A stretch of 63,001 bases of DNA, counting the filler, from Collodictyon triciliatum (Eukaryota), in NCBI GenBank assembly GCA_043381765.1. It is 5 parts of 5 records of this genome, joined end to end, with 100 filler letters (N's around TTAATTAATTAA, not from the genome) between each part and the next. Parts side by side here need not be neighbours in the genome. Positions count along the whole stretch, not along the records: positions 1 to 15,174 come from JBHJMP010001707.1; 4 more parts are not named here. One strand, 5' to 3'. The translations under genes were made by a program, and so were the position numbers. The notes beneath the pieces are model-generated. The model saw nothing but the letters and a program-made list of their open reading frames with translations, ran no database searches and was not told the origin of the DNA. Positions 1-61,030 of this stretch are shown here, one piece after another. The number at the start of each line of letters is the position of its first letter. The stretch's first letter is position 1.

Positions 1-755
1 TCCAGTCTATATACCTCGCCTGCCATTCACAGCCACCGGCTGAATCGATGTTAGCCAGGATAGCACTGTGGTCGGACAGCGCAGAATAGACTGTTTTAAG
101 TTTCTTGAACCATGCATGCAAGTCCCTTGAGCAGAAGAAGCGATCGATTCTGCTCCACGTGAAGCCGCTTTTTGTATGTCTTCTACACGTTGCTCCTAGA
201 GAGTGAGGATTTAGCGTCTTCCAAGGGTCTTGCAGCTTGTATTTCATGTCCAGTCGACAAAAGGTTTGTAATTGCGTGTCGAAGACCCAGACCACTCGGT
301 GCTGGCATCAATAAGAGCGTTGAAGTCTCCACAGATGATGATACATTTCGCAGAATCCATCTCCTTAGAGATAAGCTCATACTCGTGTATTCTATTATTT
401 GAACCTGCTGTTTGGAGCAACGTGTATGTCGTCATTATACGAGTGTCAGCTCCATCGATGTGGGTATCGAGACTTATGCAGCGGCCAAGAATAATCTCTC
501 TGAAGCGAAGATTGAGTTTGGCTATCCATTTCTTGCATAAAAACGCTACACCTGCATGTCTCTGCTGGTTATCGTCACAGGATCACATTTGTGGACCTTT
601 CCGTATTTCATTGTTGGTTAGATTATCAGGGCTGAGCCATGTTTCTTGGAGGCAGATGATATCTGTAATAGAGAAAAGAGCAGTGTTTAGGGACTCTTAT
701 CTTTTTTGGGGGTCTTTAATCCCCTAACTTTCCACGACAGAACGTTAAAACGCAT
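1..755 (-). pseudogene. LINE ORF2 apurinic endonuclease domain, disrupted
   Basis: APE motifs SWxVRGL, CLQET, GDFN, SRID and SDH, with in-frame stops and frameshifts. Confidence 0.85.
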
Positions 756-2776
756 GAAAAGTCTATTGGCTTCTGGAGGCTGTAGCCTCCGGTAGTTGGC
801 CCTCTCCGCTGGAGCTGGGTTGCTCAGAGTGGGATGGTTTACTCGATTTGTCCTTCATTTGGCCGGTGTTATAATTGCTCGCGGCTCGGCCAGGATTTGT
901 CGGATGGTCTTGGGCTTTGGGCTGCACCCCCTTTGTAGCTGTTGTGTTGGGAGACGCACTCTGTTGGTCATCAGTAACCCTCGGTTCCAATTTTTCCCCC
1001 TCATCCACGCGGTGGGCAGGGCTAACCATGTTTCCACTTTCATTTTGATTTGCTTTCTGGCTCGCTATATTCGGTGTTTTACTTGACTGATTCATTCTCT
1101 TTTCATCGGGCGAGGCTTTATCTTCGACGGTTTCGATATTTTTTGGTGCGCCAGTGATTGCAGGATGAATAACCGGTGTTTTATATTCATCTACGTTTCT
1201 TTTTCTTGCATTGGAAGCCGTTTCTCGCTGGGAGTCACAAGAGTTTCGACAGCAGGTCTGTTCCCACAAACAGTACTTAAGTAGTAATTCGTTGTTCCCG
1301 AAGCTTCAAGGAGCTCACTTTCTTCTTCAGCAGAACCTTCTATGATGACGACAGGTTGGATGGACTGTTGTTCTTCCAATCCCGAGTCTGGGACGTCGCT
1401 TCTTATGGATTGCACAGTACTTGCTGAAGGAGGAGTCTCTTGGGTGGTCCCAGGAGCCATGACCTCTAAGGTGGCTGGTGGGTGTGGTTTGCTGGGTGCC
1501 ACTATGCTATTTCCTGATTGTGTTACCGATTTGGCTTAGGCTTCCCTTTCCTCGGCGTCCTCTCCATGATTTAAAGGAGAGCTTGGTGAGATATCATCGG
1601 CTTGAGGAGGTTGGAAATCTTGGAGGTTATCGATGTTTCCTCCACTTTGAAGCCATTCCACGATTGATACTGCTTCCTCTGTGTTCATTGGTGAACTTGA
1701 TGCACTTTCGAGCAAATCGCTTGGTGATTCGTCCATCATTTCGATATCCGTTTCTTGATTTTGAAGCGGTTCCTGGATATTTGTCTTGATTGAGACTTCG
1801 AGCACTTTATCCGCGGATGTCTTGTCGCGATTTCTCCCTCTGGCATTAGAGGACGACGCGTGTTGCCTTTGGCCTTGTTTGTGGGCTCTGGGCTTGTTTT
1901 GCACAGACTATTCCTGCACGGTTAGCCTGTCTTTAGCGCTGAAGTCGGCTACTTTTGTGTGGAAGCCTGAGAAGCGAGTGGCGGTGTTTTGTTTGTTGGT
2001 GGCCACTTGATTTTTGGTGCTTGGCTTGGCAGTAGCTGTTTTTTTTTGTGGTTTGTGGTTTGACCTTGTGTGTCATACCCTTCTTTGTTGGGGAGGGTTG
2101 ATGGGATGTCAGACTCTTTGAGTGCACATATCTTAACGCGACAGTGTCTATCATGAATAACAATAAAGGTAGGTATTTTCCCCATTTTTTCCTGTTCTTT
2201 GTCATAAGTAACGAGTGCATCATTCATGCATATTCCTCCAGGCTTTGTCCAGTTGACTTTGATTGGGGTGAAGTACTCATTACAGGCTTTGAAAATATCA
2301 GTCTAGTCAACTTCAGCGGTATGTTAGACAGGTGCGCAACCTTGGTGACAGTTTTTGCTGGCATGGGGGTAAATTGGTGATTGAGGAGCTGTAAAGACTC
2401 CTCTTTAATGAAGGCAGCCGCGTTTTCTTTTCATGGGACGGCGATTCTGGGTCCCGAGGGCAGGGCTGTCCACCATAAGTGCCACGTCCTTCTCGTAGCA
2501 CTTTCGGGCTTCCATAACCTCCCGCAGTTGCTTACACATATTACTGCGGTTTGCGAAAGAGAGAACCGGCCATTGCTTGCCCCGAAGGCGGACAAAGCAG
2601 TGTTCGTCTTTGAACAGTTCGTTCTCAATCGGACTTGTTATTTAGGGGCACGTCAGCCACAAAAGATCGACCGAGAGGTTCCGTTTCCCGATGCAAGTTC
2701 GACCCTGCACGAAGCTGGCTGTCATCATCAAAATCATGGTCTCGTATTTATTTTGCACTTTTTGACGGAACCATAG
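1..2776 (-). mobile_element. Decayed non-LTR retrotransposon (LINE, L1/Tx1-like): broken ORF1 followed by ORF2 AP-endonuclease running off the window start
   Basis: ORF2 starts at ATG 755 (MRFNVLSWKVRGL) and carries APE motifs DIICLQET, IIICGDFNA, WSRIDRFF and LSDH. ORF1 fragments (763-2776) have an RRM-like part and a long S/Q/T-rich linker. Multiple stops and frameshifts. The 5' end is approximate. Confidence 0.85.
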
Positions 2777-3092
2777 GAATTTTTTTTTGCTGTCAATAAA
2801 TGCAGTCATTCAAAAATGAAAATATTAATAATGTAATTCATACTTCACAGGATAACTTAATTGGCACGATTTCTTAAAATGATTCAATATACATATATAA
2901 CTGTCACATCGATGCTTTCATGTCAACAGTATAATAATTCAATTGTATTTGCATAGACTTTACATATTCTTTCAAAAGTGGCCATCAAAGAGTCTTAATG
3001 GTATTTTATTTCAGGAGTAAATGAATATAAAATTGTTGAAAAATGAGAGAGAATCGGCGAGCAAATGAGATAGCTTGAAAAGAAAAAAAATA

Positions 3093-6000
3093 TCAAAACT
3101 CTTCGACTGCTTTTGGATGAGTAATATCATGCATTTCCACATCCTTGCGAAGTCTCATGCCCATAATTACTCTGATAATAAAATTTGAAACCCAATTATA
3201 AACAATCAAGTCCCAAATAAAGTTGAGCATGGACAGAAATTGTGTGAGTAACAGTCTCACAACAACAGGGCCAGCTTTTGAAAGGAAAACGATACATATT
3301 CCTCCATTCAAAATAACAACCAAAAGCACCAACACAACTTCAGTTTTTTGGTTAATACTGCTGTATTTGAAAAGCAGACTCAGCATCAAGGTGAAATAGA
3401 GAATCATGAGGGATTGCAATTGTGACTTTTTCAGCACATTGGATATGAATGGCCTGAAATAAATGGTCGAAGCAATCATCAGAAACAGCAGCCACAAACC
3501 AAAGTATATTTGCAGCGAAGCAGGAAAGAACGTGCTTATCATTACAATGACCAACTTTTGCATCATCAAGACGACCTCCCAGTATTGGCACTTTTCAGTA
3601 TATCCATCAATCAAAAATCTGAAAAGTGCGTATGTTTTCGAAGTAGGATTGCTCAACGCTGTTCTTTTTCGAATGATTCTGACCAAAAAAAAGAGCGGCC
3701 CGCCGATACAATAGGCAAAAAGGAAAACAAAAGAAATATTCCTCCACAATTTGTATGTTTCGTCACCACATAAAATAGACATATCAGCTATCAAATATCT
3801 TATATCTCCGAGTTTTTCACATGGAAATATCTGTGAAATGCTCGATGTGATTGAAGGATGGACAAAAAACAGCATCACCAGCATCGAGTACATGATTTCT
3901 TCCCGAAAACGATTAAGTGTAAAGCTGCTTCTTGAAATCTCATTTTTGTAAAGTCTCTTAAACTCTTTCATCAAAACGAATATTAACATTATTACTGTCA
4001 AAATTACTGGACTCAACATTGTAAACAATAATTTCTCATACAATGACATTTCTATTTGGCATTCCATCGGGTAGCTGTCTATTGAAAGCGAAAATGAGAA
4101 TAGGGCTGGGATTTTCATTGCTGAAATTATGATTGAGCTCCATTTTACATCAAAGTTCGCCAAATATGACAAGACTTGGAAATGTGTGGAGAGGGATTTC
4201 AGGATTTGAATATTTCCTGTTCTCGTCTGTCTTGATTGTTCTATCATAAAGAAAACAAAGGCAAATGGAATAAAAAAGCTCAGGAAAATCAAGAATATGT
4301 TCACTCCTTTCGGTGGGCATTTAGTGCAGTAATACCCAGTTTTTCCGTATCCATTTTCACAAATACTGCATAATGGCCCAGTGTATCCATCAGCACAAGT
4401 TTTATTTCCTCCGTTACATGCATTTTCATTCAAACATTTGTAAGCGACATACTGTCCATTTGAGATTTGAGTCTGCCAATATCCTGGTGCAACAGTTGGT
4501 TGACTGGTTCCTTCACATTCAAATCCCTTGGGGCATGTTTTGCATTGTTTTAATCCATAATCATCGCTGTATGTATCTGAAGGACATTCGTAGCAGTTTC
4601 CTTGCTTTTCATACCATCCTGGTTTGCATTCACAAGTGGAGTTTGTCAACTCGAATCCTGTCTTGCATTCACAATCGGTTGAATAAAGAGAGCCTTTGTT
4701 TTTTGTTGTAAATTTATCACCACAAGATAGGCAGAAATTCGTGCCGTTTGTTGGTTTGTATGAACCGAGTCTGCACGGAACACACTCACTTCCATCCTCA
4801 AAGTTTCCTGGAGGACATGTGCAAATGCCATCATATGACACATAAGTATCTAAGCACTTGCAATCATCTATTGATTTGGAGCCTTCTTTAATTGTGGTTG
4901 AGCGTGTGGGGCATAAACTGCATGATGAGCTTCTTTCTGAGCTGTAGCTTCCATTTGGACATTCAATGCATGATGATTGATCGAATGAGCCAGGTTTGTT
5001 GTTAAATGTACCAGCTGGACATGATGTGCATGATGCTTGACCATCTCTATCATTCCAAGTACCTTGTGGACATTCAATGCATGGTTTGTTTCCATATGAG
5101 CCGGAGTTTGAGTTGAATGTGCCTTTTGGACAAGCATAGCATGATTGAGAATCTTTTGTGATGTCTTCTTTTTGATAATATCCTGATGAGCATAAACTAC
5201 ATGATGAGCCTCCTGCTGAGCTGTAGCTTCCATTTGGACATGAAATACATGATGATACATTGAATGAGCCAGTTTTGTTGTTGAATGTACCAGCTGGGCA
5301 CGATGTACATGACGCTTGACCATTTTTATTATTCCAAGTGCCTTGTGGACATTCAATACATGATTTGTTTCCATATAAGCCGGAGTTTGAGTTGAATGTG
5401 CCTTTTGGGCAAGCGTAGCATGATTCTGAGTCTTTTATAGTTCCTTCTTTTTGGTAGTATCCTGATAAACATAAGCTGCATGATGCGCTTCCACTTAAGC
5501 TGTAGCTTCCATTTGGACATGAAATACATGATGATACATTGAATGAACCAGTTTTATTGTTGAATGTACCAGCTGGGCACGATGTGCATGATGCTTGACC
5601 ATCTCTATCATTCCAAGTACCTTGTGGACATTCAATACATGATTTGTCGCCATATGAGCCGGAGTTTGAGTTGAATGTGCCTTTTGGACAAGCGTAGCAT
5701 GATTTTGAGTCTTTTATGATATCTTCTTTTTGATAGAATCCTGACAAGCATAAGCTGCATGATGCGCTTCTTTCTGAGCTATAGCTTCCCTTTGGACATT
5801 TAATGCATGAAAATTGATTGAATGAGCCAGTTTTATTGTTGAATGTGCCAGCTGGACATGATGTGCATGATGCTTGACCATCCCTGTCATTCCATGTACC
5901 TTGTGGGCATTCAATACATGATTTGTCGCCATATGAGCCGGAGTTTGAGTTGAATGTGCCTTTCGGACAAGTATAGCATGATTTGGAGTCTTTTGTGATG

Positions 6001-9000
6001 TCTTCTTTTTGATAGAATCCTGATGAGCATAAGCTGCATGATGCGCTTCTTTCAGAGCTGTAGCTTCCGTTTGGACATGAAATGCATGATGATTGATTGA
6101 ATGAACTAGTTTTATTGTTGAATGTACCAGCTGGGCATGATGTGCATGATGCTTGACTATCTTTATCATTCCAAGTGCCTTGTGGACATTCAATACATGA
6201 TTTGCTTCCAAATGAGCCGGAGTTTGAGTTGAATGTGCCTTTTGGACAAGCATAGCATGATTGAGAATCTTTTGTGATGTCTTCTTTTTGATAGAATCCT
6301 GATAAACATAAGCTGCATGATGCGCTTCCAACTGAGCTGTAGCTTCCATTTGGACATGAAATACATGATGATACATTGAATGAGCCAGTTTTGTTGTTGA
6401 ATGTACCAGCTGGACATGATGTGCATGATGCTTGCCCATCCTTATCATTCCAAGTACCTTGTGGACATCGAATACATGATTTGTCGCCATATGAGCCGGA
6501 GTTTGAGTTGAATGTGCCTTTTGGACAAGCGTAGCATGATTGAGAATCTTTTGTGATGTCTTCTTTTTGATAGAATCCTGATGAGCATAAGCTGCATGAT
6601 GCGCTTCCAACTGAGCTGTAGCTCCCATTTGGACATGAAATACATGATGATTGATTATATGAACCAGTTTTATTGTTATATGAACCCGCTGTACACGATG
6701 TACATGATGCTTGACCATCTCTCTCGTTCCAAGTGCCTTGTGGACATTCAATACACGATTTGTTTCCATATGAGCCAGAGTTTGAGTTGAATGTGCCTTT
6801 TGGACAAGCACAGCATGATTGAGTCTTTTGTGATTCCTTCTTTTTGATAGAATCCTGATGAGCAAGAGCTGCATGATGCGCCTCTTTCTGAGCTGTAGCT
6901 TCCGTTTGAACATGACATGCATGATGATTCATTGAATGAGCCAGTTTTATCGTTGAATGTACCAGCTGGACACGATGTACACGATGCTTGACCGTTTTTA
7001 TCATTCCAAGTACCTTGTGGACATTCAATACATGATTTGTTGCCATATGAGCCGGAGTTTGAGTTGAATGTGCCTTTTGGACAATCATAGCATGATTTGG
7101 AGTCTTTTATGATATCTTCTTTTTGATAGAATCCTGATGAGCATAAGCTGCACGATGAGCTTCTTTCTGAGCTGTAGCTTCCATCTGGACATGTAATGCA
7201 TGATAATTGATTGAATGAGCCAGTTTTGTTGTTGAATGTACCAGCTGTACATGATGTGCATGATGCTTGACCATCCTTGTCATTCCAAGTACCTTGTGGA
7301 CATTCAATGCATGATGAGTTTCCATATGAGCCGGAATTAGAGTTGAATGTGCCTTTTAGACAGGCATAACATGATTGCGAGTCTTTTATAATTCCTTCAT
7401 TTTGATAGAATCCTGATAAGCATAAGCTGCATGATGCGCTTCTTTCTGAGCTGTAGCTTCCATTTGGACATGAAATACATGAAGATTGATTGAATGAGCC
7501 AGTTCTATCGTTGAACGTACCAGCTGGACACGATGTACATGATGCTTGACCATCTCTATCATTCCAAGTACCTTGTGGACATTCAATACATGATTTGCTT
7601 CCAAATGAGCCGGAGTTTGAGTTGAATGTGCCTTTTGGACAAGCATAACATGAGTTTGAGTCTTTTATAATTCCTTCATTTTGATAGAATCCTGATAAGC
7701 ATAAGCTGCATGATGCGCTTCTTTCTGAGCTGTACCTTCCATCTGGACATGATAGACATGACGATTGCTTGAATGAGCCAGTTTTATTGTTGAATGTACC
7801 AGCTGGGCATGATGTGCATGATGCTTGACCATCCTTATCATTCCAAGTACCTTGTGGACATTCAATACATGATTTGTTTCCATACAAACCGGAGTTTGAG
7901 TTGAATGTGCCTTTTGGACAAGCGTAGCATGATTGTGAGTCTTTTATAATTCCCTCTTTTTGATAGTATCCTGATAAGCATAAGCTGCATGATGAGCTTC
8001 TTTCTGAGCTGTAGCTTCCGTTTGGACATGAAATACATGAAGATTGATTGAATGAGCCAGTTTTATTGTTGAATGTACCAGCTGGACATGATGTGCAATC
8101 GTCTTTATAGCTATTTCCAAAAGTGCCTTGTGGACAATTAATACATGAGAAGTTGCTTGTTGAACCAAACTTTGGATTGTAAGTACCATCTTTACAATTG
8201 ATGCACAAGTGTTGACCGATATATGGATTGTATGAGCCAGGCTGACAAAGTTCACATGTTGATTCGCCTGTTTTTGATGAAAATCTTCCTTTTGGACATG
8301 ACTGACAGCTGCTTAAGCTGGCCGATGCGACATTGGGGTTGTAGGAACCAGCTGGACATTTTTCACAGGTGATTGATTTTGTTTTGTCTGAGTAAGTTCC
8401 AGTGGGGCATGGATTACAAAATTGCTTTCCTTTCTCATTAATGAAAAATCCAGCAGGACAGTCAAAACAGCTCGACTTTCCATCAACGCTATTGTATGTT
8501 CCTGGTTCGCATAAAAGACATGATAAATTTCCAGCACCTCGAATATTTGGATTGAATGTTCCTGCAGGGCATGGAGTGCACGACTTATCTCCTGAATTAC
8601 TGTAAAAACCAGTGGTGCAATTATTACATGAAATTTGCCCCTTTATATTATTAAATGTTCCAGCCTCGCATTTCTTGCAAATTGATTGGCCCAAAAAGTT
8701 ATTATATGTTCCTTCTTCGCATGGAAGACAATCTTTAAGGCTTGTGGAACCAGTTAATGGATTATACGTTCCAGTTGGACATAATAAACAAGATGTGAGC
8801 TCATTTCCATTATTGTAAGAGCCAGTTGGACATTTTTCGCATGAATTTGATTGTTGGTTGAAAAAGTATCCCCCTTGGCATGGACTCCATAGTTTGATAA
8901 ATCTATCAGTGCTTGCTGAAATTATTTTAGAGTCAGGAGTGGCAAAAACACTATTTACTGAATCTGTGTGACTCAGAAGTGTTCTGATTTCTCTTCCATC

Positions 9001-11669
9001 AGATATTGTCCATATTTTGACTGATTTATCACTGCTTCCAGAATACAATTTTGTTCCATCAGTTGATATTGAAATGCCATTTACTGAGCTTGTGTGTCCG
9101 TTTATTGTTCTGATTAAAATTCCATCTGACATATTCCAAATTTTGATTGTGTTATCGCTGCTTCCGGAGATAATTTTTGTCTCATCTGGAGAGGTAATAA
9201 CACATCTAACAGTATTTCCGTGACCGGTTATGGTTCCGAGTAGTGCTCCATCTAAGAGATTCCATAATTTTATTGAAAAATCAGCACTGCCAGATATTAT
9301 TTTGCTGTTAACAGGAGTGATGAAAACAGAATTTACTCCTTTTGTATGTCCTGACAGTGTTTGAGTTAAAATTCCATCTGAAACTCTCCAAATATTTATA
9401 TTCATATCGTCACTTCCTGATGCTATAAGATAACTATCTGACGTTATTGCTACGCTCCGAACAGCTGCAATATGGCCACTGAATGTTTTTAATAGTAAAC
9501 CATCTGAGAAATTCCACATTTTAACGGAATTATCGCTGCTTCCTGAGACTATTTTTGTTCCATCAGCCGAAACAACAACACTATTCACAGCACTTGCATG
9601 TGCATTTATTGAAAGCGCTTGAGAACCGTCAGCATAATTCCAGATTCTTACTGTATTGTCACTAGCTCCTGACACGATTTTTGTTTTATCTGGGCTCAAA
9701 GCAACACTATTGACTGAACTTGTGTGGCCTGAAACTGTCAAAATCAAGCTGAAATCAGGAAAGTTCCACATTTTGATTGTTGTATCATCGCTTCCTGACA
9801 AAAATTTCGTGCTACCAGAAACAATTGATACCCCATTTATTGCTGCAACATGCTCATTCATTATATTTATTGTGACTCCGTTTAAAAAATTCCATATTCT
9901 TATTGTATTATCACTGCTTCCAGAGAAAATCTTTGAGCCATCAGGAGATATCGAAACAGAGTTAACTATTCCAGTGTGCCCATTGAGTGTGCGAATCAAG
10001 CTTCCATCTAAAATGCTGGTCACAATAATTGTTTTGTCGCTGCCTCCAGAAACAATTTTCATTCCATCTGGCGTTATAGCAACAGAATTTACAGAATTAG
10101 TGTGAATTTTTATTTCTTGGACTAATGTTCCATCAAAAATATTCCAAACTTTGATTGTTTTGTCTGAACTTCCGGACACAATTTTTGAATTATCAGGAGT
10201 TAAAACAACACTTGTTACTATTTCAGTGTGCCCAGTTAACGTACGAGTTACAGATCCATCAGAAATGCTTGTAATTTTGATTGTTTTATCGCTGCTACCG
10301 GATACAATACTAGTTCCGTCTGCGGTTATAGCAACCGAGTTAACTGCTTCAGTGTGGATTTCAAATGATTGAGTAAAAGCGTCATCATTCACGTTCCAGA
10401 CTCTAATTGTTTTATCAGCACTTCCTGAAATAATTTTTAAACTGTCTGGTGATAATATTAATGTGTTCACTATGTCTGAATGACCAATCAAGGAGCGAAT
10501 TAATGCGCCATCGGATAATTTCCAAATTCTGATAACACTGTCTGAATGCCCTGATATGGATATTGATTTCGACTGAGACGAAGAAATACTTGTAATTCTA
10601 GAGCCTCTAGTGTATTTAAGAGCTCCGTCAGGGAAATTCCAAAGTTTAATTGTTCGGTCTCCACTTCCTGATAAAATTTTTGAACTATCAGGAGAAACAG
10701 AAACACTTATTACACCAGCAAGGTGACCGGTCAATGTGCGAATCAAAGCTCCATTAGAAAAATTCCATATTTTTATAGTACTATCGTCACTTCCAGAGAT
10801 AATTATTGAGCTGTTAAGAGAAATAGCTACTGTGCACACAGCATTACTATGCCCAATCAATGTGCGAATCAAAGTACCATCAGAAATATTCCAAATTTTG
10901 ATTGTTTTGTCATGACTCCCAGACGCAATTTTTGAGCCATCAGGAGTGACAGCAACACTCCGAACCCAACTAGTATGACCGTTCAATGTGCGAATCAAAG
11001 CTCCATCAGAAAGGTTCCAGATTTTGATTTCGTTATCGAAACTTCCAGAAACAATTTTTGAGCCATTAGGAGTAACAGCAACACTCCAAACACCATTAGT
11101 ATGACCAGTCAATGTGCGAATCAAAGCTCCATCAGAAAGGTTCCAGATTTTGATTGTATTATCATAACTTCCAGAAACAATTTTTGAGCCATTAGGAGTA
11201 ACAGCAACACTCCAAACCCTATCAGTATGACCAGTCAATGTGCGAATCAAAGCTCCATCAGAAAGATCCCAAATTTTGATTGTATTATCATAACTTCCAG
11301 AAACAATTTTTGAGCCATTAGGAGTAACAGCAACACTTAAAACATAACTAGTATGACCAGTCAATGTGCGAATCAAAGCTCCATTAGAAAGATTCCAGAT
11401 TTTGATTGTTCTATCATAGCTTCCAGCTCCAGAAATAATTTTTGAGCCATCAGGAGTGACAGCAACACTCCAAACATCGTCAGTATGACCAGTCAATGTA
11501 CGAATCAAATTATCTTGCCCTTCAACAAGACACAATCGGCAGTGGAGCATCAATCCTAAAAATATATCAATTAAAATTCTATGTATTCTGAAACCAATAA
11601 AATTAAACAATTTCTTAATTACTCACCCATCAGCAACAGAGCTGTAAAAGTCTTTGATTTCAATCTCAT
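3093..11669 (-). CDS. Giant predicted cell-surface protein: signal peptide + 21 WD40 repeats + Cys-rich GCC2/GCC3 (ephrin-receptor-like) repeats + ~9-TM C-terminal domain; one 2-bp frameshift near 6820
   Basis: Exon 1 (11669-11627) and a GT-AG intron (11626-11556) give MRLKSKTFTALLLMGLMLHCRLCLVEG-QD. ORF 6748-11610 has the GH...WN repeats followed by CxxCPxGTY/F repeats. ORF 3093-7088 continues the same repeats and then hydrophobic helices with YWEVV and RPF motifs. Confidence 0.9.
4915..8100 (-). repeat. Coding tandem array of ~11.5 x 279-bp (93-aa) Cys-rich units
   Basis: The anchor gagttgaatgtgcctt recurs every 279 bp (e.g. 6505, 6784, 7340), except for a 277-bp spacing between 6784 and 7061. 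Confidence 0.95.
10873..11508 (-). repeat. Five near-identical ~126-bp WD40-coding repeats
   Basis: The unit ttgattcgcacattgactggtcatact...gatggagct is repeated; differences cluster in a few codons. Confidence 0.95.
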
Positions 11670-14600
11670 TCTAAACTAATACGATGAGTGTTTAAACATT
11701 TATACAAAATTTTATGAAGTGGTGTAATACCCAATCAAGACATTTGTTTAAACATCTAATATTGAACCATTCTACTCAATTATTATTGATTGATTCAAAA
11801 ATACATCGCATTAGACCATCTAGACAACTTCAATAATACTCATGTAATACAAATAAATCTCAAAATAAAAACACTCTTATTCACACCTTGATAGACATGA
11901 CTATTTTATTTGATGGTATAGTGACTTATTCAATCAATTCATTTATATTAAAAATGCAAAATATTCATCATCTCAAATTAAATTGATTTCAACTCAAAAA
12001 TTAATTGATAAAATTCATTAGACTTCGGTTATATTTTTAGCAAGGTCATTTTTGTATCAATAATAGGTATATTTTGATTTGATACTTATAGTAAAATCAC
12101 TAATCAATTATTAGATAAATCATTCCTCCAAAACAAATCAATCAATTTACGACATACGGAAAACAATATTAAATAGGGTACTCATGCAAAGTAGCCTCAT
12201 TATGAATAGGAAATGAGAATAAATCAAAAAAATCAAGTTTAAGTTTAAATGATAGGATAATACATGTTTCAGTTTGAGAAGAATAGGTTTGGTTTGTCTG
12301 AGTGATAAATCAATAAATTGTGGTGACCAAAATAGCTGACGATTTCACAGAAGACTTTTCAATCAATTTTATGGACTTTAAAATCAAAATATATCACACC
12401 TATAATTAAAAATATAGAATTAATTATTATTATTCAAGCAATTTGCACGATTTTAAAAGAATTCAATATGATAAAACAGTTATATGTTATGTGTATCAGG
12501 AATTAAAGTGAATATCACACTTATGTATAAAACATGTCATCAAGGAAAACACGTGTCAATCATTTGGTTAAATTTTTCACATATTTCGTATGTAATATTG
12601 ATAAAGTAAGGAAAAAATTATTTAAATTATTGTTAATCATGTATTCTTTAAAACAGCGTCTAAATTCACAAAACATCCAATATTTTAATTAATTCATCAA
12701 AAATATATAAAACATTAAGTCCTTGTTTTTTCAGAATTACAAAATTGGATGAGCAGATTATATGATGTAATGCTTAAAAGTAAGAAGTGGTTAATGACAT
12801 ATAATTTTAATAATGTTTAATTGTTATATTGATTATTTATGAAAGATGTATGGAAATAACATTAAAATTGAAATGATATACGATAATTGATTTAAGTGCA
12901 TGTATTAATAGATTATTCATCAAAATATTGTAAAATATAATCTCATAAAATATTGTTTACCAGAACCAGTGGTATCCTTTGAAAAATTGCTTTATTGGTT
13001 GAACATTTATTTTAATATTCCTCTAAATAAAAAATTATAAATACCAATATATTCCAATAAAATTTAATCAAGCTATTATCAATTATTCATTATCATAATG
13101 TGCATATTTATCTAGATATACTAATTCAATTTTTTTTGCTTCCGTATAATATTTATACATATAATTAATCAGAAAATCATAACTTTATAATAGTCATATT
13201 ATTCGATAACTTATATTGTTCAATGATAAAATAAATACTGTCTGCTTGACTATATCGAGTGAACATCATATAGGAGCAAACAAAAAATATTTCCTTTAGA
13301 ACAAGGGTTTCGATAGTATCTGATAGAAATTAAAATAATGATTAAATATAACTTAGCAAATTGTCTTTCAGTTAACTATATTATTGATTATATATAAAAT
13401 ATTTTAACCCTTGAAGAATAACCATCTATGTACAAAATAGGGCTCAAGCGACGAACTACATCCTAATATTCGGTAAAATTTCATTACTAACTGATTGCAG
13501 TTTTAAAAGATGTTGTGTGAGTATTGGATATCATCTCAAATACATTTCATGATTCACAACCGGTATTATTATGCATTTATTTATCTGATTCATGTCAATT
13601 GTTATCTCATTTTCTATCATAAGTCCCAAATATAGTGATTTTTGATTGACCTCTCTTTTAATGACATATTTGTCACAGTCACCATATTAATATGATTCAT
13701 AGAGCTAAAACCAGCTATACTAATCAAAACCAAATCACTCTGATAAAAAATTGTTTTATTATTATGACTATTAATAGTGATATGTTATATGTAAATACTA
13801 TATTTCATTGAGAATTTGTAGATTATGTGCTATAAAGTTTCTTTGGAGCTCTGAATAGAATAAGTCTATTACACTAAGGTTAGTACTAAAATTTTGATAC
13901 AAAATATATATTAATGTATAAGAAAGGCAACAAAGGTCTGAATATTAATAAATTTACAAGCACAATCGTTTCAAAGGTAATTTATAATTGATAATTTAGT
14001 CATTGAGGTATTTTACGTGTGCATCAATACAGAGATAATGTTCCTAGTTGAAAATTGATGAATAATACATAAAGAAATTAAATTGTAATCGTATTTAATA
14101 CTTGTACTCTGCCATATTTTGACCAAACATAATAAACTGAACACTATAAGACTTAATAATATGAAACAATCATAGAAGTCATACTATATGTGGTGGATTA
14201 AATAGATAAATCATCATATAAACCAACATAAATATACGAAAATATTATGTATGCATAAAAAGAATTTTTGAATATACGTGAATGATGATAATCGAAAAAA
14301 ATAAAAGGGCGTGAACCGTCTACCATATCCTTGGTTAGTCGGGACAATGAAAAAGCGAATATCGATATGCGTCTTATTACCTCTGATTGATTTGGAATTG
14401 GGAGGGGAGGGGTGGGTTTGTTGGATTTGATAAATCGACATCTAAATAACCAAGAGAGAAAATTGAACTAATTTAGATGATTTAACAACGATTAATTATC
14501 AAATAGGTTTATTTATTGAGCGGTAAACCTACAAATCATTTCACTTGGAGAAACGAACAAGGTCTAGTAAGGTGAGGGGTATGGGCGTGAAGCTGTGGAC

Positions 14601-15174
14601 AAATGATTGCAGTTCGGTCAAGGGGGAGGGGTGGTGTATCATTCAGCGGCAAACTGGTTTTTAGCGGGGATGTGGTATGTGTTTTTCGATTTGGATATTA
14701 GAATGGTTCATATGTTGATTAGTTGGTTTTTAAATTCACATAAGATGGAAAAGTGTATTATTAATTTAATTAAGACGTCATATTAAAATACGATACCAAG
14801 AATCTGCAGATAACTAAGCTTCTCTAGTAGATACGTAATTTAAAGATTTTTTTGTAGATTTAGTATTCACAAGACGATACATAAAACGATTATTGAAAAA
14901 TAAACGACGTAGCATGACGATTCTGTAGGCAGACCATTCATCTTGATTAAACTTTATTAGATAATTAATATATAGCTGATATTATTGTATTTATTGTAAG
15001 TATTACAATATTGATTCCATGTATTTTATGTTAGGATTAAATCTATCAACTGAATAATGAAATAACTAGCAAAGCCAGACTCCGATGATAATTCTTAATT
15101 TTATAGATTTTTGTTCTATCATTAGTAATAGTTTTACAAGTGAAATATTTTTTAATTATAAAATATTCGAATTT

Positions 15175-15274
15175 NNNNNNNNNNNNNNNNNNNNNNNNNN
15201 NNNNNNNNNNNNNNNNNNTTAATTAATTAANNNNNNNNNNNNNNNNNNNNNNNNNNNNNNNNNNNNNNNNNNNN
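15175..15274. other. Artificial contig linker (N-TTAATTAATTAA-N)
   Basis: 100-nt N run with a central six-frame stop spacer. Confidence 0.98.
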
Positions 15275-17015: not shown

Positions 17016-19660
17016 TTATTCATCGGGGGAAACGTCCAGTTGATAAGGAAAACCGAATGAATAACTATAGATTTCTTGGAGTAAGTTGGAAAACATGACG
17101 CAAATTGATCGAAAACCACTGTAAGGCCCGATTCCGAAAGGCTGAGAGGATAACAATATCGGGCTCTGCGGTTCTATGCAAGATGCTTTCCTCCACTCTG
17201 CAGCTTTTTGAATCAACTTCGATACCCATCCGTTTTCGTAGCACTCAGGTAGTTTGAAAATGCTTGAGTATTTGTGCGTCTCCCCAGTTTTGTCTCCATT
17301 CTCATCCAATATGTCTTGAATAATTTTGGTTTTTTGTTCCAAAATATCCAGCACATCTCTGGAGCCTCCTTGAACCAACTGTTTCAGCTTTTCGAAATCG
17401 TCGGCTTTACCAAACCAAATATAAGCTAGCTGTGCGTTTTTCGCAACTACGACCGCTTTATCATAAAGTCGGCCATATTCTCCGCTGGGAAACGCGTAAA
17501 CTTTCCTTTATCACAATAAGTAGCAAAGTTTTCATCAAATGAAACAGCTCCGATGGAAAGTAAGAGTCTTTTATCGAACCTAGTCAGCCCACTGATGTTT
17601 TTCAGCAGAATTCTACCACACTCTAATTTCCTTGATCTAGTTGCACATACTTTTTTTCACCCAAGGCACTATGATCTGCAGCCTTCGCCATGCTATTGTC
17701 CTCCTCAGAAAATACATTTAATCTATCGACAGTATTTTCAACTAAAGAACATCCAAACCTTGCGTATATTTTTTTTTTAAGTTATCATGAGGAATTTTCG
17801 TAAGAAGCATATTGATCAAGTTCCATATGCGTATACTTTTATCTGCACTCCCAGATTCCAGCTAATCATCTCCTTTCGGTCCTTTGATACTGGATAAAAT
17901 CATCACACGGCCTGTGTGTCCTTCCAATTTCTTTATTTGACGTCCTGTGTCTAGGTTCCACATACGAATGGTCTTGTCGTAGCTACCTGCAACTAACTAG
18001 ATTCCTCCATTCAGTCCAATCAAGTAACACAAAGTCTTGAAACCTAGTGTGCGCCCTTTAAGCACTTTGACATGATTACCAGAGGCCAAATCCCATATTC
18101 TTATAGAGCTATCATTGGCCTCAGACACTGGGAAGTCGCCGCCTGAATCTGCTATGATTTGAAAGCAGTTTACCATGTCTGAGTGCCCTTTTAGCTTTCG
18201 GATCTGATTTCCTGTGATTATATCCCATATTCGAATGGTAGAATCGCCATTCCCAGAAGCAAGCCAGCTTTCTTTATTTGGTCACTTTATACAGCATACA
18301 CTTTGAACTTCTTGATTATGCCCCTTTAGCTCTCTAATTTAAAATCCAGAAAATGTATCCCAGTTATGTATACATGCAATATAACCCCCAGAGGCCAACC
18401 ATTTTCTCCGTGCGGTCCTGGAACACTACAAACAGTTAATATTTTGGTCGTGTGCCCTTAAAGTTTTTTGGTTGGTTTCCAGAAACTACTCTCGAACACT
18501 TAATAATCTGTCATCGCTGGCAGACACCAACTAACTCTTATCTTTCGGTCCTTGTATGACACAAAAGGTGTACACATCATTTGGGTGTCCATGTAATTGC
18601 TTAATTTGTTTTCCAGTTTCTATATCCCAAATGCAAATAACTTAATCACGACCTCCTGACACCAGCCATTCATCCCCATATGTTACAGGAATGTTAGAGG
18701 GTATTAGAATCTTTAGTTTGTCCTTCAAAAATATGATTAGAATCCCCGTATGCCAGACTTTTCGTGAGGGTATTGTTCAGGATACAATCGCCCAGGTTTG
18801 GAACGGATAAAGCGACACCATCCAAAACGGCTCCTTCCAAATTTGACCTGTTCATAACAGGATTACGAAGGTTTGCATATGAAATTTTACTAATGATGAA
18901 TTCATCTTTTCCCTTTTTTTTTTCTTTTCTTTTACCCCTGTTTTTTCTTTTTTCTATCTCCCACACATCCCCACCTACTTTGGAACTACTTTCCTGACGT
19001 TTGAATGAAAGATTGTTGAGACGGGCTCAACAGCTAAGATTTTTAGAATAAAAAAACGATAAATCCATCTTGCTGAATGAAATATTCGTGAAATTGAGCG
19101 ACGATATTACATCAGATGCACTCTTTGATTTTCTTTCATCATCTCTCGACATGTGAAGAATTTGGAACAGTGACAAAATAATCTCTTTGCGATTCCATTC
19201 TTCCTCTAGTTTTGCTTCCTCCACATTTTCAAAAATGAAAATCTTAACCTTCGTAAATTCAGCAGGTTCTTTTTTAATTCCTATCTCGCTGGAATGATTG
19301 GATAAGCATTCACATGAAATAAATGCCATTGGGTGATTCCAACCATGTTTCTTGGCAAATGTATCTCATTTCGGACCAAAATTCTATTGCCACACCATTT
19401 TTCCAGTGACCGCATATATTTTCTTAACATTCCTGCATGCTACTCAGCTATTCCAATCTTCAAAACAAGAATGTTCTCCATGTATGAAAACGGCCATTTT
19501 GTAAAGCTGAGCAGCATTATCAAACTCTTTCTTACTTTTTATAAACCCTAGCTATTCTTGTGCACTGCTGGCCATCTTTTATTGAGATCATAATTTTTGT
19601 TTCTTTTCTAATATTCGAGGCTTTTTGAAAATAATCGACTTCCTGTTCTAATATGTTATG
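17016..19660 (-). pseudogene. Decayed TPR-like / pentapeptide-repeat / WD40 gene with an unknown C-terminal domain
   Basis: TPR-like YFQKASNIRK and EFDNAAQLYKMAV; ASDVISSLNFTNISFSKMDLS then ANLRN..SNLEGAVLDG pentapeptides; ~7 WD40 repeats (e.g. GHSDMVNC..SIRIWD, GSYDKTIRMWN). Many stops and frameshifts; ends approximate. Confidence 0.8.
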
Positions 19661-30435: not shown

Positions 30436-30535
30436 NNNNNNNNNNNNNNNNNNNNNNNNNNNNNNNNNNNNNNNNNNNNTTAATTAATTAANNNNNNNNN
30501 NNNNNNNNNNNNNNNNNNNNNNNNNNNNNNNNNNN
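30436..30535. other. Artificial contig linker
   Basis: N run with TTAATTAATTAA. Confidence 0.98.
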
Positions 30536-31091: not shown

Positions 31092-32905
31092 TTAACGCGG
31101 TCGATTTTGTCCATAAAGCGGACTTGGAACACCCCTAGAAAGAGACGAATCTGATGTGGCCTTCTCTTGGCCATCGCCAAGGAGAGTACCTGATGAGTGT
31201 GACCTTTGTTGAGCACGATCAAGTCTTGATACCGGCGTATGAAGATCGTTGCGTTCACGTATAAATGTGTCCTGTAGGGGTGTCATATTTTTAATTATTA
31301 TTTTTTTTTTAAAAAAAAAGAATAAATAAGAGAATCTCCCAAATTATTTTGTAAATATACTTCGCAAGAGATAAAAAAAAAGATCTTATTTCTTTCTCTC
31401 CTTCATGCATTTTTTTTTTATAAAAAGCATAGTGACGTTTGATATACATATTTTGTATTTACATATTCATGAAGCGGGGGGTTATATCCCAATGATGTGT
31501 GAGAAAAGGAACGACTCTGAGAGGCTCTTTGAGGATGGGCTGCTTTTTGATGGGGCGTGCGCATGGAAGGTATTCTTTCAAGTCCCGAAAAGCTTTTCTC
31601 TCCATCTGTGGGTGTGGTGCTGCCTGCTCTGAAATACCTGCCCTGCGTTTCGTATGTATTTGGGTCTCCGTGTTCATATCTCGGTGACTTTGGGGGGTCT
31701 TGCTTCCCTTGTGGGAGGTACTGGTAAAGGCCAGCTTTTGAATCTTGGCGGTAATGCGGGGCAGACAGGGTTGTATCTGACATGCCAGGATACGAAGGCT
31801 GTGGACTCACCACCTGCCGGCCAGAATAAGAATATTCTAGCTGTTGCTGTCTATGAGGTTGCTGTTGTGGGGGAGTGACTGCAGGTTGTTCTGTCTCGCT
31901 CGGGGCTTGGTGATGTGCTTGGTACGGCGGCTTTGGAATATTTGCCGGCTCCACCGTGATGGAATTTCGCTTGCTCGAGTCGCTTCGAGTCGAGGTAAAG
32001 ACTGACGTAGGGTGGGCACGCAGGTGGGACTCAGTCATACGCTGCTCGCGTCGGCTAAACTTTGGTGGGTTATGTGCAACCATCTTTGTCGGAGATTTAA
32101 TCAACAGGATGGACTCTTCTACATGCAGCGCAGTGGGCTCTTCGACATTTCCTTTGGTGTCACTTGCTTGATGCGTTTGCTTTGGGCCATACAGCGGAGG
32201 GTGGTCGATATAGTGCGGTTGCTTGACCATATGACTTTTCGCATCTGGGTCGGGAAATTTCACGTCGCTATGTGAATTGATAGTGGAGATAGAGCGCCGT
32301 TGTTCAGACGCAGTTGATGTGTACTGAGGGTTGTGTCGCTCGAGTTCGGGAGTGTTGCCGCTGGGCAAGGCCAGGTTTGACATTTTTTCTGTTATTTGGA
32401 CCTGAATCTGATCGGTTTCAGTGGATAAAGACGGGAGTTGGAGTTTACGCGGGGTAGTTGGATGTGGGTCGTACACACTGTCCGAGCTGGATTCTGCAGA
32501 TGGACCAAGATTTTCACTACCCATCAAATGCAGTGTTGGATTGTGTGGTATTTCGAGCTCGTCTGATAAAGATGCCAGACAAGACGTTGTGTTGGGCATC
32601 GACTTGGAGTAAACACTCGAATTTGGTAGGGATGCCGACTGGTGGAGTGAAGGGGATGATATCAGCATTGCATCGAGAGGCATGGATGATTCGGATGTAT
32701 GAGGGGTCAATTCTATTCCTCTCACTGATGAGTTGTCTGTCTGATGGCGAATTTGGGGAGATAACGTTGGCACTGAATTTTGATCTTTACCATGTTCTAT
32801 GTAGGTTTGACCAAGATGTGGCGCTAGCTGATCATTAGCTGATGACTGAGTGTTTGGAAAAATGACACTCACAGGCAGAGGTATGTGAGGAGGAGGCTTT
32901 CCGCG

Positions 32906-32997
<92 letters not shown>

Positions 32998-34967
32998 GAT
33001 GCTGTTGATACTGTTGATGCTGTTGATACTGTTGATGCTGTTGATGCTGTTGATGCTGTTGATGCTGTTGATGATGATATTGTTGTATAGGTTGATTGGT
33101 CTGGCTGAAATTTTGATAGCTCATAGGTTTAACTGAATTATTTGGCTGATATTGATGATGAACAGCTACGCTATGCTGAGAATGTAAAATACTGCTTTGC
33201 AGATTATGAGAGACGTTCGAGGACGCAGGTGCCCTAGTATTGAACTTCTCAGATGGCCGAAAATCAAATGTCGAGTTTGGGGTTATAATTTTAGGGCCGT
33301 GAATAATATCGTATTGGTCTATTTCTTCTTGCTTTGACACCAACATTTCTTGAAAATGAGTGACCTTATGCGATATGAGTCGTAATGCTCTCCTTGATTC
33401 GTCTTTATCGATACCAAACACGAACCAGCGATGTTTTGCCACTTCATACAGCTTAATTCTTTTCTCAACATCCACTTGAAAAAAGCCATCAATTAAAGAC
33501 ATAGTTGTTGGTGACGTGTTGGACATGGAACTATACTTCCCTGACAGAATAGATTCAGTCAAAAGCTCTGGAGTTTCATCAGGGAAAGGGAAGGAACCGT
33601 CAATTATAGTGTACAATATCACACCTAAAGCCCAAACATCAGCAGGTCTTCCATAGTATGGCTCCCCCATTAATATTTCGGGTGCTGCATAGTTCAAGGA
33701 GCCACAATAATTTGATAGTTTGGCTTCTGTCACATACGAGTGACTTAGACCGAAATCAGCGAGTTTCACCTGCATATCCGATGTGACAAGAACATTATCC
33801 AACTTTAGATCCCGATGAATGACGTGATTGGTATGACAATATTGGACTGCATATACAATCTGTCTGAATATCTTTTGTGCTATTTCCATTCGGCAGCCAT
33901 TCTGAGGGGGTTTATAAAAAAAATGAGTGTAATACTATGCAATTTATAATGACATACTTAAAAGTCCACAATTTTTAAAATGATAAATGCACTACTAATC
34001 CCTAGATCAATAAAAGGGGGTTCCTGTAGACAAAGAGATATCGTGTGGAAGACGGGAATGATAGTACCCTAGAAGAAACTGTTGAAAATTACCGGTGCTT
34101 TCTTTTGGAGGTATTCCAAGAGATCTCCTGCGTTGGCATACTCCAGGACAAAAAATATATACTTTTTATGCTCTAATTTCTCAATAAACTGGACGATATT
34201 GGGGTGTTGCATATTCCTTAGAACTCGTGATTCCTAATACAACCAACCAATAAATGATCCAGTCGAACGATTAAACATGCAGCAGAGATAGAAAAGAAAA
34301 AGAAAAAGAAAAAGAAAAAGAAAAAGAAAAAGAAAAAGAAAAAGAAAAAGAAAAAGAAAAAGAAAAAGAAAAAGAAATTGAAGTAGAAATTAAAAAAGAA
34401 AAAGAAAGAAAAAGAAAGAAAAAGAAAGAAAAAGAAAGAAAAAGAAAGAAAAAGAAAGAAAAAGAAAGAAAAAGAAAGAAAAAGAAAGAAAAAGAAAGAA
34501 ATTAAAATTGAAGTAGAAATTGAAATACTTGTTCCATCTGAATCTCTACTTCGGCATCGATGTCTGCTCGCTTGTAAATTTTAACTGCACTCAAATTCTT
34601 CTTTCGTGTATTTTTTGCAAGTTTCACTTTAGTAAACGAACCGTAGCCAAGAAGAGGACCTTAATATAATTGGATGGTAGATGAGTTTGAGATATTCATA
34701 CGTAATTTTAAAACTCAAGAAATTACTTTATATATGATTAATACGTGTTTTTAAGTGTATCTGACGGAGAGAAAAATTTCCGGTGCGAGTGAGAAAAAAA
34801 GTTCACAAAATAAGGCCATTGGCAGATAAGAAAGAAAAATAGAGACAATAATGAAAAAGGACATAGTGGAGACAAGTTTGACCTATTTCGTAGTCCCCTA
34901 TCTTTTTATGGCTTCGGAATAGAAAACCATGAGGAAACTTTTCGTAGGTGTACCTTGGTGAGAGCAT
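31092..34967 (-). CDS. CAMK-like (AMPK-related/MARK-like) Ser/Thr protein kinase with a long disordered polyQ tail
   Basis: Spliced exons give GYGSFTKVKLA, AVKIY, HPNIVQF, LEYANAGDL, HRDLKLDN, DFG, CGSLNYAAPE and DVWALG. The large exon runs ~33902-31460. First and last exons are uncertain. Confidence 0.9.
32905..33075 (-). repeat. Coding (CAA)n / QQH repeat (polyglutamine)
   Basis: (GTT)n on the plus strand inside the kinase ORF. Confidence 0.95.
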
Positions 34968-43739: not shown

Positions 43740-45251
43740 ATGGCCTCAAACCAACCCCACACCGCCCAGGCCAGTCCCACGAACAGGAAGCAAAAGTCCA
43801 TCGCCAGCGCGTGCGTCGGGTCGGAGTCTGTGGGTGCCACAAAGCGGTGAGTCAAGTCTCCTTTGTTGCCATGCTGCTTGGCTGTGTGATATGCATTGGG
43901 TGAAGGGGGCTGCCTATCGTATTCGATGCTGCTTTCTTATTCCTATGTCTATGTACTTCCACGGTGAGCGTATTAGTGTTTACGGTGCTGGAGATATAAT
44001 CCGAGTGTGAATTGACGGCAAGCTACTATGTTCTTGATTCAATATTTTGTCCTCCTTTTTTTATAGTAATAATGATAATAATGATATAGCCTTCGGAGTG
44101 AACATATGGCTTTGATGGTGAGTATAAACTTTGATGATGAATACAACCGTCTTTTTATATTGGTTATTGGAAGAGAAACAAATAGAGATAAAGAGAGAGA
44201 TAGTAAGAATGCTCACACATTAGATATCATTTTAGTTCGACTTGATAAACATAGAAGACTGTCGTAACAGTCACAACAGGAAATTATGAATATAATGAGG
44301 GAAACCACGTGTAATTTAGTGACGCGATACTCTCCTTTGCTATGATATTGCGTTCACACGTTGTTTCTTCTGAAAGGCTCTTGCTAATTGTGATCATCGG
44401 ATTCTAACAGATATCTAACACATCTGGTATATCAGCCTTTCCAAGTGAAAGTAATATTCATGAATGGGCAGCAACCATCGCTGGCAGAGAGGGAACGGTA
44501 AACAATATCATTTAAATATTTTTTAAACGATTGTGCATGTGTGCATTTTCACAGTGTACCGATGACGCTTGCCAATCTGACCTCATTACAAAATCATCTC
44601 CACTATTGTAACTCAACACGCCATAATTGAGTCTAGCTAGTTGATTATGGATGCTTTCACTATAAGCAGCTATCTATACTCGCCACTAATATGCATATTT
44701 CCTTTGATATTCCAGGACAAAAGAAAGCCTTTTCTCAGTCATGCACCTTATTTTGATGATGACACCCTAATATACGATTTTCTCTGTCCTCACAAAAGGC
44801 TTACGAGGGTTTCGAATACAAGTTGAAAATCTCGTTTCCTCAGACCTATCCTCATCATGCGCCTGTCGTCAAGTTTGCCACACCTGTCTGCCTCCCACAT
44901 GTCGACACCTCTGGGGACGTTTGCCTCGACATCTTAAAGGTCGGTGCACCATACCCGCTCCTCTTTGTTCTATACCTACCACAACCCTGGATGCAAGTCG
45001 ATTCGAGCCGCTCATCGCTGCGGCAAGTAGAGATGATTAAGTGCTCTGGGAGAGCAAGACGCGGAGTCTTGTGCCTGAAAGGTAATCTGAACGCCACGTA
45101 TTGTACTTTGCAGGAAAAGTGGTCGGCCATGTACGACCTTCGCTCAGTACTCGTGTCTTTACAAAGCGCGCTGGCCTTGTCCAGTCTAGACCCCCTCTTA
45201 AATCCACAAGCTGGCATGCCATCAGATGGTAGCGAGGCGCAGACTGCATAA
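43740..45251 (+). CDS. UBE2C: Ubiquitin-conjugating enzyme E2-C-like (UbcH10), 5+ exons
   Basis: N-terminal extension MASNQ.., then [72 protein letters not shown]. The last exon is uncertain. Confidence 0.85.
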
Positions 45252-45696: not shown

Positions 45697-45796
45697 NNNN
45701 NNNNNNNNNNNNNNNNNNNNNNNNNNNNNNNNNNNNNNNNTTAATTAATTAANNNNNNNNNNNNNNNNNNNNNNNNNNNNNNNNNNNNNNNNNNNN
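45697..45796. other. Artificial contig linker
   Basis: N run with TTAATTAATTAA. Confidence 0.98.
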
Positions 45797-60930: not shown

Positions 60931-61030
60931 NNNNNNNNNNNNNNNNNNNNNNNNNNNNNNNNNNNNNNNNNNNNTTAATTAATTAANNNNNNNNNNNNNN
61001 NNNNNNNNNNNNNNNNNNNNNNNNNNNNNN
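60931..61030. other. Artificial contig linker
   Basis: N run with TTAATTAATTAA. Confidence 0.98.

Follow-up and report, generated by a model that had tools for sequence, protein, structure and literature searches.

A predicted membrane protein of the protist Collodictyon triciliatum carries a canonical WD40-repeat head on a cysteine-rich stalk

The window analysed here, a stretch of 63,001 nucleotides (nt) in five parts from the genome of the protist Collodictyon triciliatum (GenBank assembly GCA_043381765.1), contains in its first part (record JBHJMP010001707.1) a large gene that lies wholly on the minus strand. Every element noted in a preliminary description of this DNA was found at the place assigned to it there (Table 1). 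Two overlapping long open frames run through the gene (6748-11622 and 3093-7106, both minus strand), and because they stay open for 1,592 and 1,242 codons and the Pfam domain E-values are extreme, none of these elements is due to chance. They encode, from the N-terminus onwards, an array of WD40 repeats (the head), a cysteine-rich stalk and a polytopic membrane domain (the tail). The reading that we prefer, with a probability of roughly 0.6, is a single gene for a membrane protein of about 2,835 amino acids (aa), read through a frameshift in the stalk, with its N-terminus outside and a head that would act in recognition at the cell surface.

Table 1. Positions of the gene's features and of the spacers, counted along the window.
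Feature	Positions	Strand	Basis
Exon 1, 43 nt: ATG, basic n-region, first half of the hydrophobic signal-like segment	11627..11669	-	reading of the spliced sequence
Phase-1 intron, 71 nt	11556..11626	-	GTGAGT donor, pyrimidine-rich TTTTTAG acceptor; splicing predicted from sequence alone
Start of exon 2: remainder of the hydrophobic core and V-x-G site	11518..11555	-	translation of the spliced exons
WD40 head, 21 canonical blades, aa 30-905	8884..11511	-	Pfam, blade-seeded phmmer, AlphaFold2
126-nt tandem array, one blade per unit, 6.2 copies, 84% matches; covers the first propeller	10724..11509	-	Tandem Repeats Finder (TRF)
Cysteine-rich stalk, about aa 906-2425	4440..8883	-	34 Ephrin_rec_like stretches, NCD3G and TNFR-like matches (Pfam)
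279-nt (93-aa) tandem array within the stalk, 11.4 copies, 88% matches	4911..8097	-	TRF
Frameshift, 2 nt missing, at 6821	6819..6823	-	one stalk unit of 277 nt against 279
Juxtamembrane Cys-rich module, weak DUF7630 match	4317..4439	-	Pfam
Polytopic tail: nine membrane helices, outer beta-hairpin loop, cytosolic C-terminus	3096..4304	-	AlphaFold2, loop charges, alignment
Stop codon	3093..3095	-	open-frame reading
Spacers	15175-15274, 30436-30535, 45697-45796, 60931-61030		window positions

The start codon at 11669 follows an in-frame TAG three codons upstream, and exon 2 begins at 11555, in phase with an open frame of 1,624 codons. With the predicted intron removed, the N-terminus combines three basic residues and a hydrophobic run of some 19 residues with a V-x-G site in agreement with the -3/-1 rule of signal-peptidase cleavage (applied by eye). 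The best 10-residue hydropathy is 2.35 in this spliced form, compared to 0.9 when translation is started at the first internal Met, which bears out the earlier proposal that a short first exon and an intron restore a signal-like N-terminus; the segment would have this character only once the intron is spliced out. The putative signal peptide was judged from hydropathy and the n/h/c layout, and the same hydropathy mark is reached by 44% of 140 members of the family to which the tail belongs (at least 900 aa, M-starting) and by 22% of 107 WD-only proteins.

Twenty stretches of the first ~900 aa match the Pfam WD40 family (PF00400, E 7.5e-200), and phmmer seeded with blades resolved 21 of them, blade 8 being degenerate. 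The repeats are of the GH...WD type, 40-42 aa in length, as in other members of PF00400. AlphaFold2, run on the head with 32 homologues, gave a confident model for blades 1-7, a seven-blade propeller of 28 strands, with a predicted local distance difference test score (pLDDT) above 90 for residues 1-296. The whole set probably forms three propellers, a 3 x 7 arrangement suggested by the blade count; hence, of the arrangement originally proposed, the number of blades stands and the grouping is backed by a confident model in the first propeller only.

Blades 2-5 share 83-94% identity at the DNA level, and their differences cluster at codons 15, 17, 33 and 35 (0.49 per site vs 0.079 elsewhere). 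Nonsynonymous and synonymous codon differences stand at 19:2 in these four codons vs 26:15 in the remaining ones. Codons 15 and 17 flank a conserved V, and codons 33 and 35 a conserved D, on the top face of the propeller. These are the pairs described by Paoletti et al. (PMC1805685) for HET-E, in whose propeller two top-face residue pairs, each placed around a conserved residue, are reported to be positively selected.

The blades match best the WD40 arrays of nSTAND1 proteins from cyanobacteria and of NACHT proteins from fungi, which account for 111 of the 120 matches listed, mostly at 35-56% identity. With such STAND/NLR sensors (cyanobacterial nSTAND1-WD40, fungal HET-E/NWD) the head shares a high internal repeat identity and, for HET-E as reported in the source cited above, variation at the same four top-face positions. 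However, STAND/NLR proteins carry a nucleoside triphosphatase (NTPase), whereas the gene described here has no NTPase or effector domain and a predicted extracytosolic location behind a putative signal peptide. The Pfam matches of the gene include no NACHT, NB-ARC or nSTAND NTPase, nor was such a domain found in the 3.5 kb upstream. Because of this lack, the gene is not, by its domain content, an NLR, and the head is best described as a borrowed sensor module; the likeness to NLR-style sensors proposed earlier thus holds for the blades and their variable positions and does not extend to the protein as a whole. Among the matches listed, the blades are nearer to cyanobacterial nSTAND1-WD40 proteins (Microcystis, Pseudanabaena, Tumidithrix; up to 56% identity) than to the named eukaryotic matches, namely Stentor (37%) and fungi (38-42%). 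These values hint that the head may have come from bacteria, a point on which repeats so close to a consensus can be misleading.

The stalk that follows the head holds Ephrin_rec_like stretches in two sets of 16 and 18 (E 3.7e-104 and 1.1e-118) over ~1,520 aa, of which 169 are Cys (11.1%), with 51 CxxCPxG motifs, in good agreement with the ~1,500 aa of such repeats announced in the preliminary description. At its membrane end, the DUF7630-like module adjoins the tail, placed as in the relatives P0003, P0005 and P0025. A third minus-strand frame, open for 404 codons within the stalk array (5714-6928), results from the scarcity of stops in the 279-nt repeat and is no gene. Eleven anchors in the stalk units are exactly 279 nt apart, with a single interval of 277 nt (6828 to 6551) as the only exception, so that the frameshift to which the preliminary description alluded is present in the assembly. 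The two missing letters fall after the KDS codons, and the upstream frame would end at 6748. Contigs from four freshwater or subsurface metagenome runs (X1-X4) were aligned to the gene, and all four that bridge 6818/6819 (two from X2, one from X3 and one from X4) carry two extra letters. We attribute the shift to faulty assembly or to a lesion that arose very recently in this copy.

Hydropathy clusters mark the tail at aa 2435-2800. The AlphaFold2 model of the last 435 aa, made with 26 short relatives, has a pLDDT of 88 and a predicted template modelling score (pTM) of 0.82 and was read as nine membrane helices, the number estimated beforehand. Its outer beta-hairpin loop carries two Cys (C194 and C211) that are invariant in the alignment of the relatives. 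Lys and Arg make up 18 of the 75 residues in the cytosolic loops vs 8 of the 84 in the outer loops, a distribution that fits an N-out topology of the model. No further hydrophobic segment was found between the N-terminal one and the tail. Therefore, the WD40 head must share a side of the membrane with the disulfide-rich stalk, either the cell exterior or a lumen, and this holds independently of the signal peptide. The placement of the head outside the membrane together with the stalk, as first suggested, is thus upheld, a lumen being compatible with the topology as well. A search of PDB sequence profiles with the tail alignment gave no meaningful match.

The WD40 array and the first ~690 aa of the stalk share one uninterrupted frame, in keeping with the claim that head, stalk and tail belong to one gene, and the junction falls in unique sequence. 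A 240-nt contig of another sample (run X1, record 5) crosses it at ~8886, covering 76 nt on one side and 146 nt on the other with 20 mismatches and no gaps (~91% identity); it is the sole independent sighting of the WD40-stalk fusion. Third-position guanine-cytosine (GC) content is low in all three parts of the gene (0.26, 0.30 and 0.42). An assembly chimera of a cytosolic WD40 gene and a stalk-and-tail gene would find some support in the long internal repeats of this piece and in the small share of it contained in the public runs, which are freshwater and subsurface metagenomes. Nevertheless, the position of the junction within a single frame of unique sequence, the contig that spans it, the similar base composition and third-position GC across the join and the presence at the WD40 end of its own signal-like exon and intron make this origin highly improbable.

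Proteins of the same architecture were sought in several ways. Canonical WD40 repeats were found in none of 182 tail-bearing relatives (by local phmmer with the WD40 region, 0 of the 150 tail matches listed and 0 of 32 further long proteins). In searches with the junction, the matches listed comprised 111 WD40-only and 9 stalk-only proteins at 867-2,760 aa and, among 119 new ones at 2,761-5,000 aa, 3 WD40-only proteins and 116 with a stalk; none of these 239 proteins had both. A scan of metagenomes with the junction peptide gave 23 loci, all WD40-only by tblastn, and ESM Atlas, queried with the junction part, returned WD40-only clusters with scores of at most 0.85. Our literature searches, supplementary files aside, brought up no account of an ectodomain of canonical WD40 repeats mounted on an Ephrin_rec_like stalk.

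The scaffold below the head is, by contrast, common. When the tail was compared by phmmer with 1.84 billion representatives, 6,322 of them matched at E<=1e-3, 1,646 at <=1e-10 and 55 at <=1e-30, and among the matches listed the matching region is C-terminal in proteins of 400-6,500 aa. The closest named members among them come from the transcriptomes of Rigifila ramosa and Mantamonas plastica (29-34% identity over ~370 aa, E 1e-55 to 5e-43). By these similarities, the tail belongs to a protist family of stalk-and-tail proteins that is very large, uncurated and provided with interchangeable heads. Its members are built from a variable head, a stalk of Ephrin_rec_like and/or TIG domains, a DUF7630 module and the polytopic tail. 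Pfam was used to survey the heads of 34 of the 150 listed tail matches (ranked in the first 64, 815-2,178 aa): TIG was found in 16, RCC1-like in 7, PQQ, FG-GAP, LRR and beta-helix in 2 each, and Kelch and EGF in 1 each, with 5 proteins lacking a match at 1e-5. Propeller heads (RCC1, PQQ, FG-GAP, Kelch) are therefore present in 12 of the 34 and a WD40 head in none. For longer relatives, precomputed Pfam lists also show heads of the discoidin, C-type lectin and LamG types. The protein resembles these relatives in its homologous tail, in the order of its parts and, often, in having a propeller as a head, and differs in that the head is a probably triple canonical WD40 array with recently amplified blades. 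Going by these comparisons, it is the head, with its canonical and hypervariable WD40 blades, that is unusual. Among proteins of 763-2,175 aa, a word-index search for the tail had no match at E<=1e-20, an effect of the index, since phmmer against the representatives found such proteins; a scan of metagenome contigs with the tail found no relative.

The tail is also distantly linked by sequence to the membrane domains of the fungal Pkd2/TRP-like proteins (PF06011). One relative, P0345, matches it at 54.5 bits and has itself a tail that passes PF06011 at 45.3 bits (cut-off 28.5), and in ESM Atlas the tail has as its neighbours, at 0.93-0.94, clusters of the DUF7630, TRP and Ephrin_rec_like types. 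Schizosaccharomyces pombe Pkd2 is reported to have a signal peptide followed by an extracellular domain, a membrane domain of nine helices and a tail in the cytosol, and nine helices are given for Pkd2, Trp663 and Trp1322 alike (bioRxiv 10.1101/2022.08.11.503631). The PF06011 proteins (Pkd2, Trp1322, Trp663 and Aspergillus nidulans TrpR) have in common with the predicted protein a signal peptide (putative in the latter), the extracellular N-terminal domain, the ~400-aa nine-helix domain and the cytosolic C-terminus; however, their ectodomain measures ~150 aa and the one described here ~2,400 aa, and Pfam found no TRP_N/ML-like domain in either half of the protein. Pkd2 has been reported to become Ca-permeable upon membrane stretch (PMC9727806).

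A further parallel is found in the plant receptor kinases CRINKLY4 (ACR4/CR4), described as having an extracellular seven-blade propeller, then a TNFR-like Cys-rich domain and then a membrane anchor (bioRxiv 10.1101/2020.08.10.245050). In that account, each propeller blade of CRINKLY4 contains a disulfide and the cytoplasmic part is a kinase, whereas the protein studied here has no Pfam match to a kinase. The preliminary description knew of no family with this architecture. This remains valid for the WD40 head among the tail-bearing relatives listed, and has to be qualified for the architecture in general, propeller heads being common on the same scaffold and the pairing of an extracellular propeller with a TNFR-like domain being already reported for CRINKLY4.

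Under the preferred reading, a cleavable signal peptide would be followed by the membrane-distal 21-blade head, the stalk, the juxtamembrane Cys module and the nine-helix tail. The stalk would be rigid and disulfide-rich, its length set by the recently amplified 93-aa unit, and the propellers would use their top faces to bind a protein or particle from outside (prey, microbe or kin). Specificity may have been diversified by duplication and exchange of blades, plus substitutions at the four top-face positions of each blade, in the manner of fungal NLRs. Binding, or a pull on the long stalk, would then be transmitted to the polytopic tail, a membrane module that could let Ca2+ through or signal in some other way. 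A bolder version, conceivable in our view and yet doubtful, would have a hypervariable STAND/NLR WD40 sensor moved to the protist cell surface, possibly from cyanobacteria, and set on a Pkd2-like channel tail, giving a receptor for prey, pathogen or kin that diversifies in the germline by blade shuffling, like the NLRs of fungal allorecognition, and relies on ion flux, not on oligomerisation, for signalling.

Several observations weigh against the preferred reading. As assembled, the gene is frameshifted and would give a truncated product devoid of the tail, and the contigs that bridge the shift are short (71 nt or slightly more), 90-99% alike and may derive from other repeat units or from paralogues. 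Propellers 2 and 3 have no confident model (pTM 0.44), and segments 297-344, 677-764 and 850-883 of the head have a pLDDT below 50. Only two Cys are present in the 876 aa of the head, which shows none of the disulfide adaptation of CRINKLY4. Enrichment in N-glycosylation sequons, considered as a sign of adaptation to the secretory route, was rejected, as the head has 11 compared to 13.8 +/- 3.0 in shuffles and 8 of 114 WD regions of homologues are equally dense. The four positions that vary among the blades also vary in the consensus of the cyanobacterial homologues, and their variation may reflect relaxed constraint at the surface instead of selection; for this reason, diversifying selection on them is no more than suggested by the codon counts. 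No solved structure similar to the tail model was found, PF06011 has no direct match to the tail even at E<=10, and the DUF7630 match (21.4 bits, E 2.7e-4) is below its cut-off of 27. Finally, no second protein of the same architecture was found, so that its conservation cannot be demonstrated.

One alternative is a gene that has recently died or been truncated. If the loss of the two letters is real, the product would be a secreted WD40 head with half a stalk and no anchor, or the locus would be a young pseudogene in a surface-protein family of fast turnover. The shift is in the assembly and within a tandem array, where slippage and unequal exchange readily occur, a retrotransposon-like endonuclease fragment is found just downstream and an orthologue of the same architecture is missing from the searches. 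Set against this, the frame past the shift runs on without a stop over its whole 1,242 codons in DNA of ~38% GC, the remaining 10 stalk units are all in frame, and the bridging contigs, which come from three other samples, carry the two letters in every case, all of which makes a dead or truncated gene unlikely. An intact protein could also reside in an internal membrane (phagosome, lysosome, Golgi, endoplasmic reticulum [ER] or contractile vacuole) with its head in the lumen, for instance gripping ingested material. Topology by itself cannot tell the lumen from the outside, and of the PF06011 relatives A. nidulans TrpR is reported in the Golgi (PMC8618638) and S. pombe Pkd2 at the ER as well as the plasma membrane (PMC11333956). 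A stalk of ~1,500 aa would fit poorly in a narrow lumen, however, and it resembles the tall ectodomains of other family members, for which we consider an internal location improbable.

Canonical WD40 propellers are cytosolic and nuclear scaffolds by textbook. If the preferred reading is true, a triple WD40 head mounted on a stalk and secreted would mean that the fold is functional outside the cell without reinforcement by disulfides, and that the repeat-shuffling route to new binding specificities, used by fungal and bacterial NLR-like proteins, serves surface recognition in a protist. The canonical WD40 head is what is new here; for the rest there are analogues, in the propeller heads found on this scaffold and in the combination of an extracellular propeller with a TNFR-like domain (CRINKLY4). 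The gene also points to a very large uncurated family of protist stalk-and-tail proteins whose nine-helix tail has neither a solved structure nor a known function, and work on how this tail signals could start from a head whose binding logic can be recognised.

As regards the surroundings, the window is not contiguous, being made of pieces of ~15.16 kb joined by spacers (44 N + TTAATTAATTAA + 44 N). The real neighbourhood of the gene is 1-15174 only, and the other pieces are possibly from elsewhere in the genome. Rfam and tRNA scans of the window yielded nothing of use for placing the organism. Upstream of the gene, 11670-15174 has 23-32% GC and no open reading frame (ORF) of at least 90 aa on either strand, and by its sequence it holds nothing from which more 5' exons or an NTPase domain could come. 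Just downstream there is a stretch of 47% GC (2-582, minus strand, and ~766-2300) with a frameshifted Exo_endo_phos fragment (E 2e-4, below the cut-off) and, upstream of the fragment, low-complexity ORFs; its appearance is that of a non-LTR retrotransposon in decay. Outside the gene, the one WD40 match within the window, at 17781-18695 (minus strand, second piece), is an ordinary WD40-repeat gene with 25-32% identity to the blades of the head and was discarded as a paralogue. In the third piece, 31421-33934 (minus strand) codes for a Pkinase domain (E 1.9e-41) followed by a very long Q/H-rich tract that includes a run of ~40 Q, and 44763-45248 (plus strand) for a ubiquitin-conjugating enzyme (UQ_con, E 4e-20) whose frame is interrupted by an apparent in-frame read-through intron.

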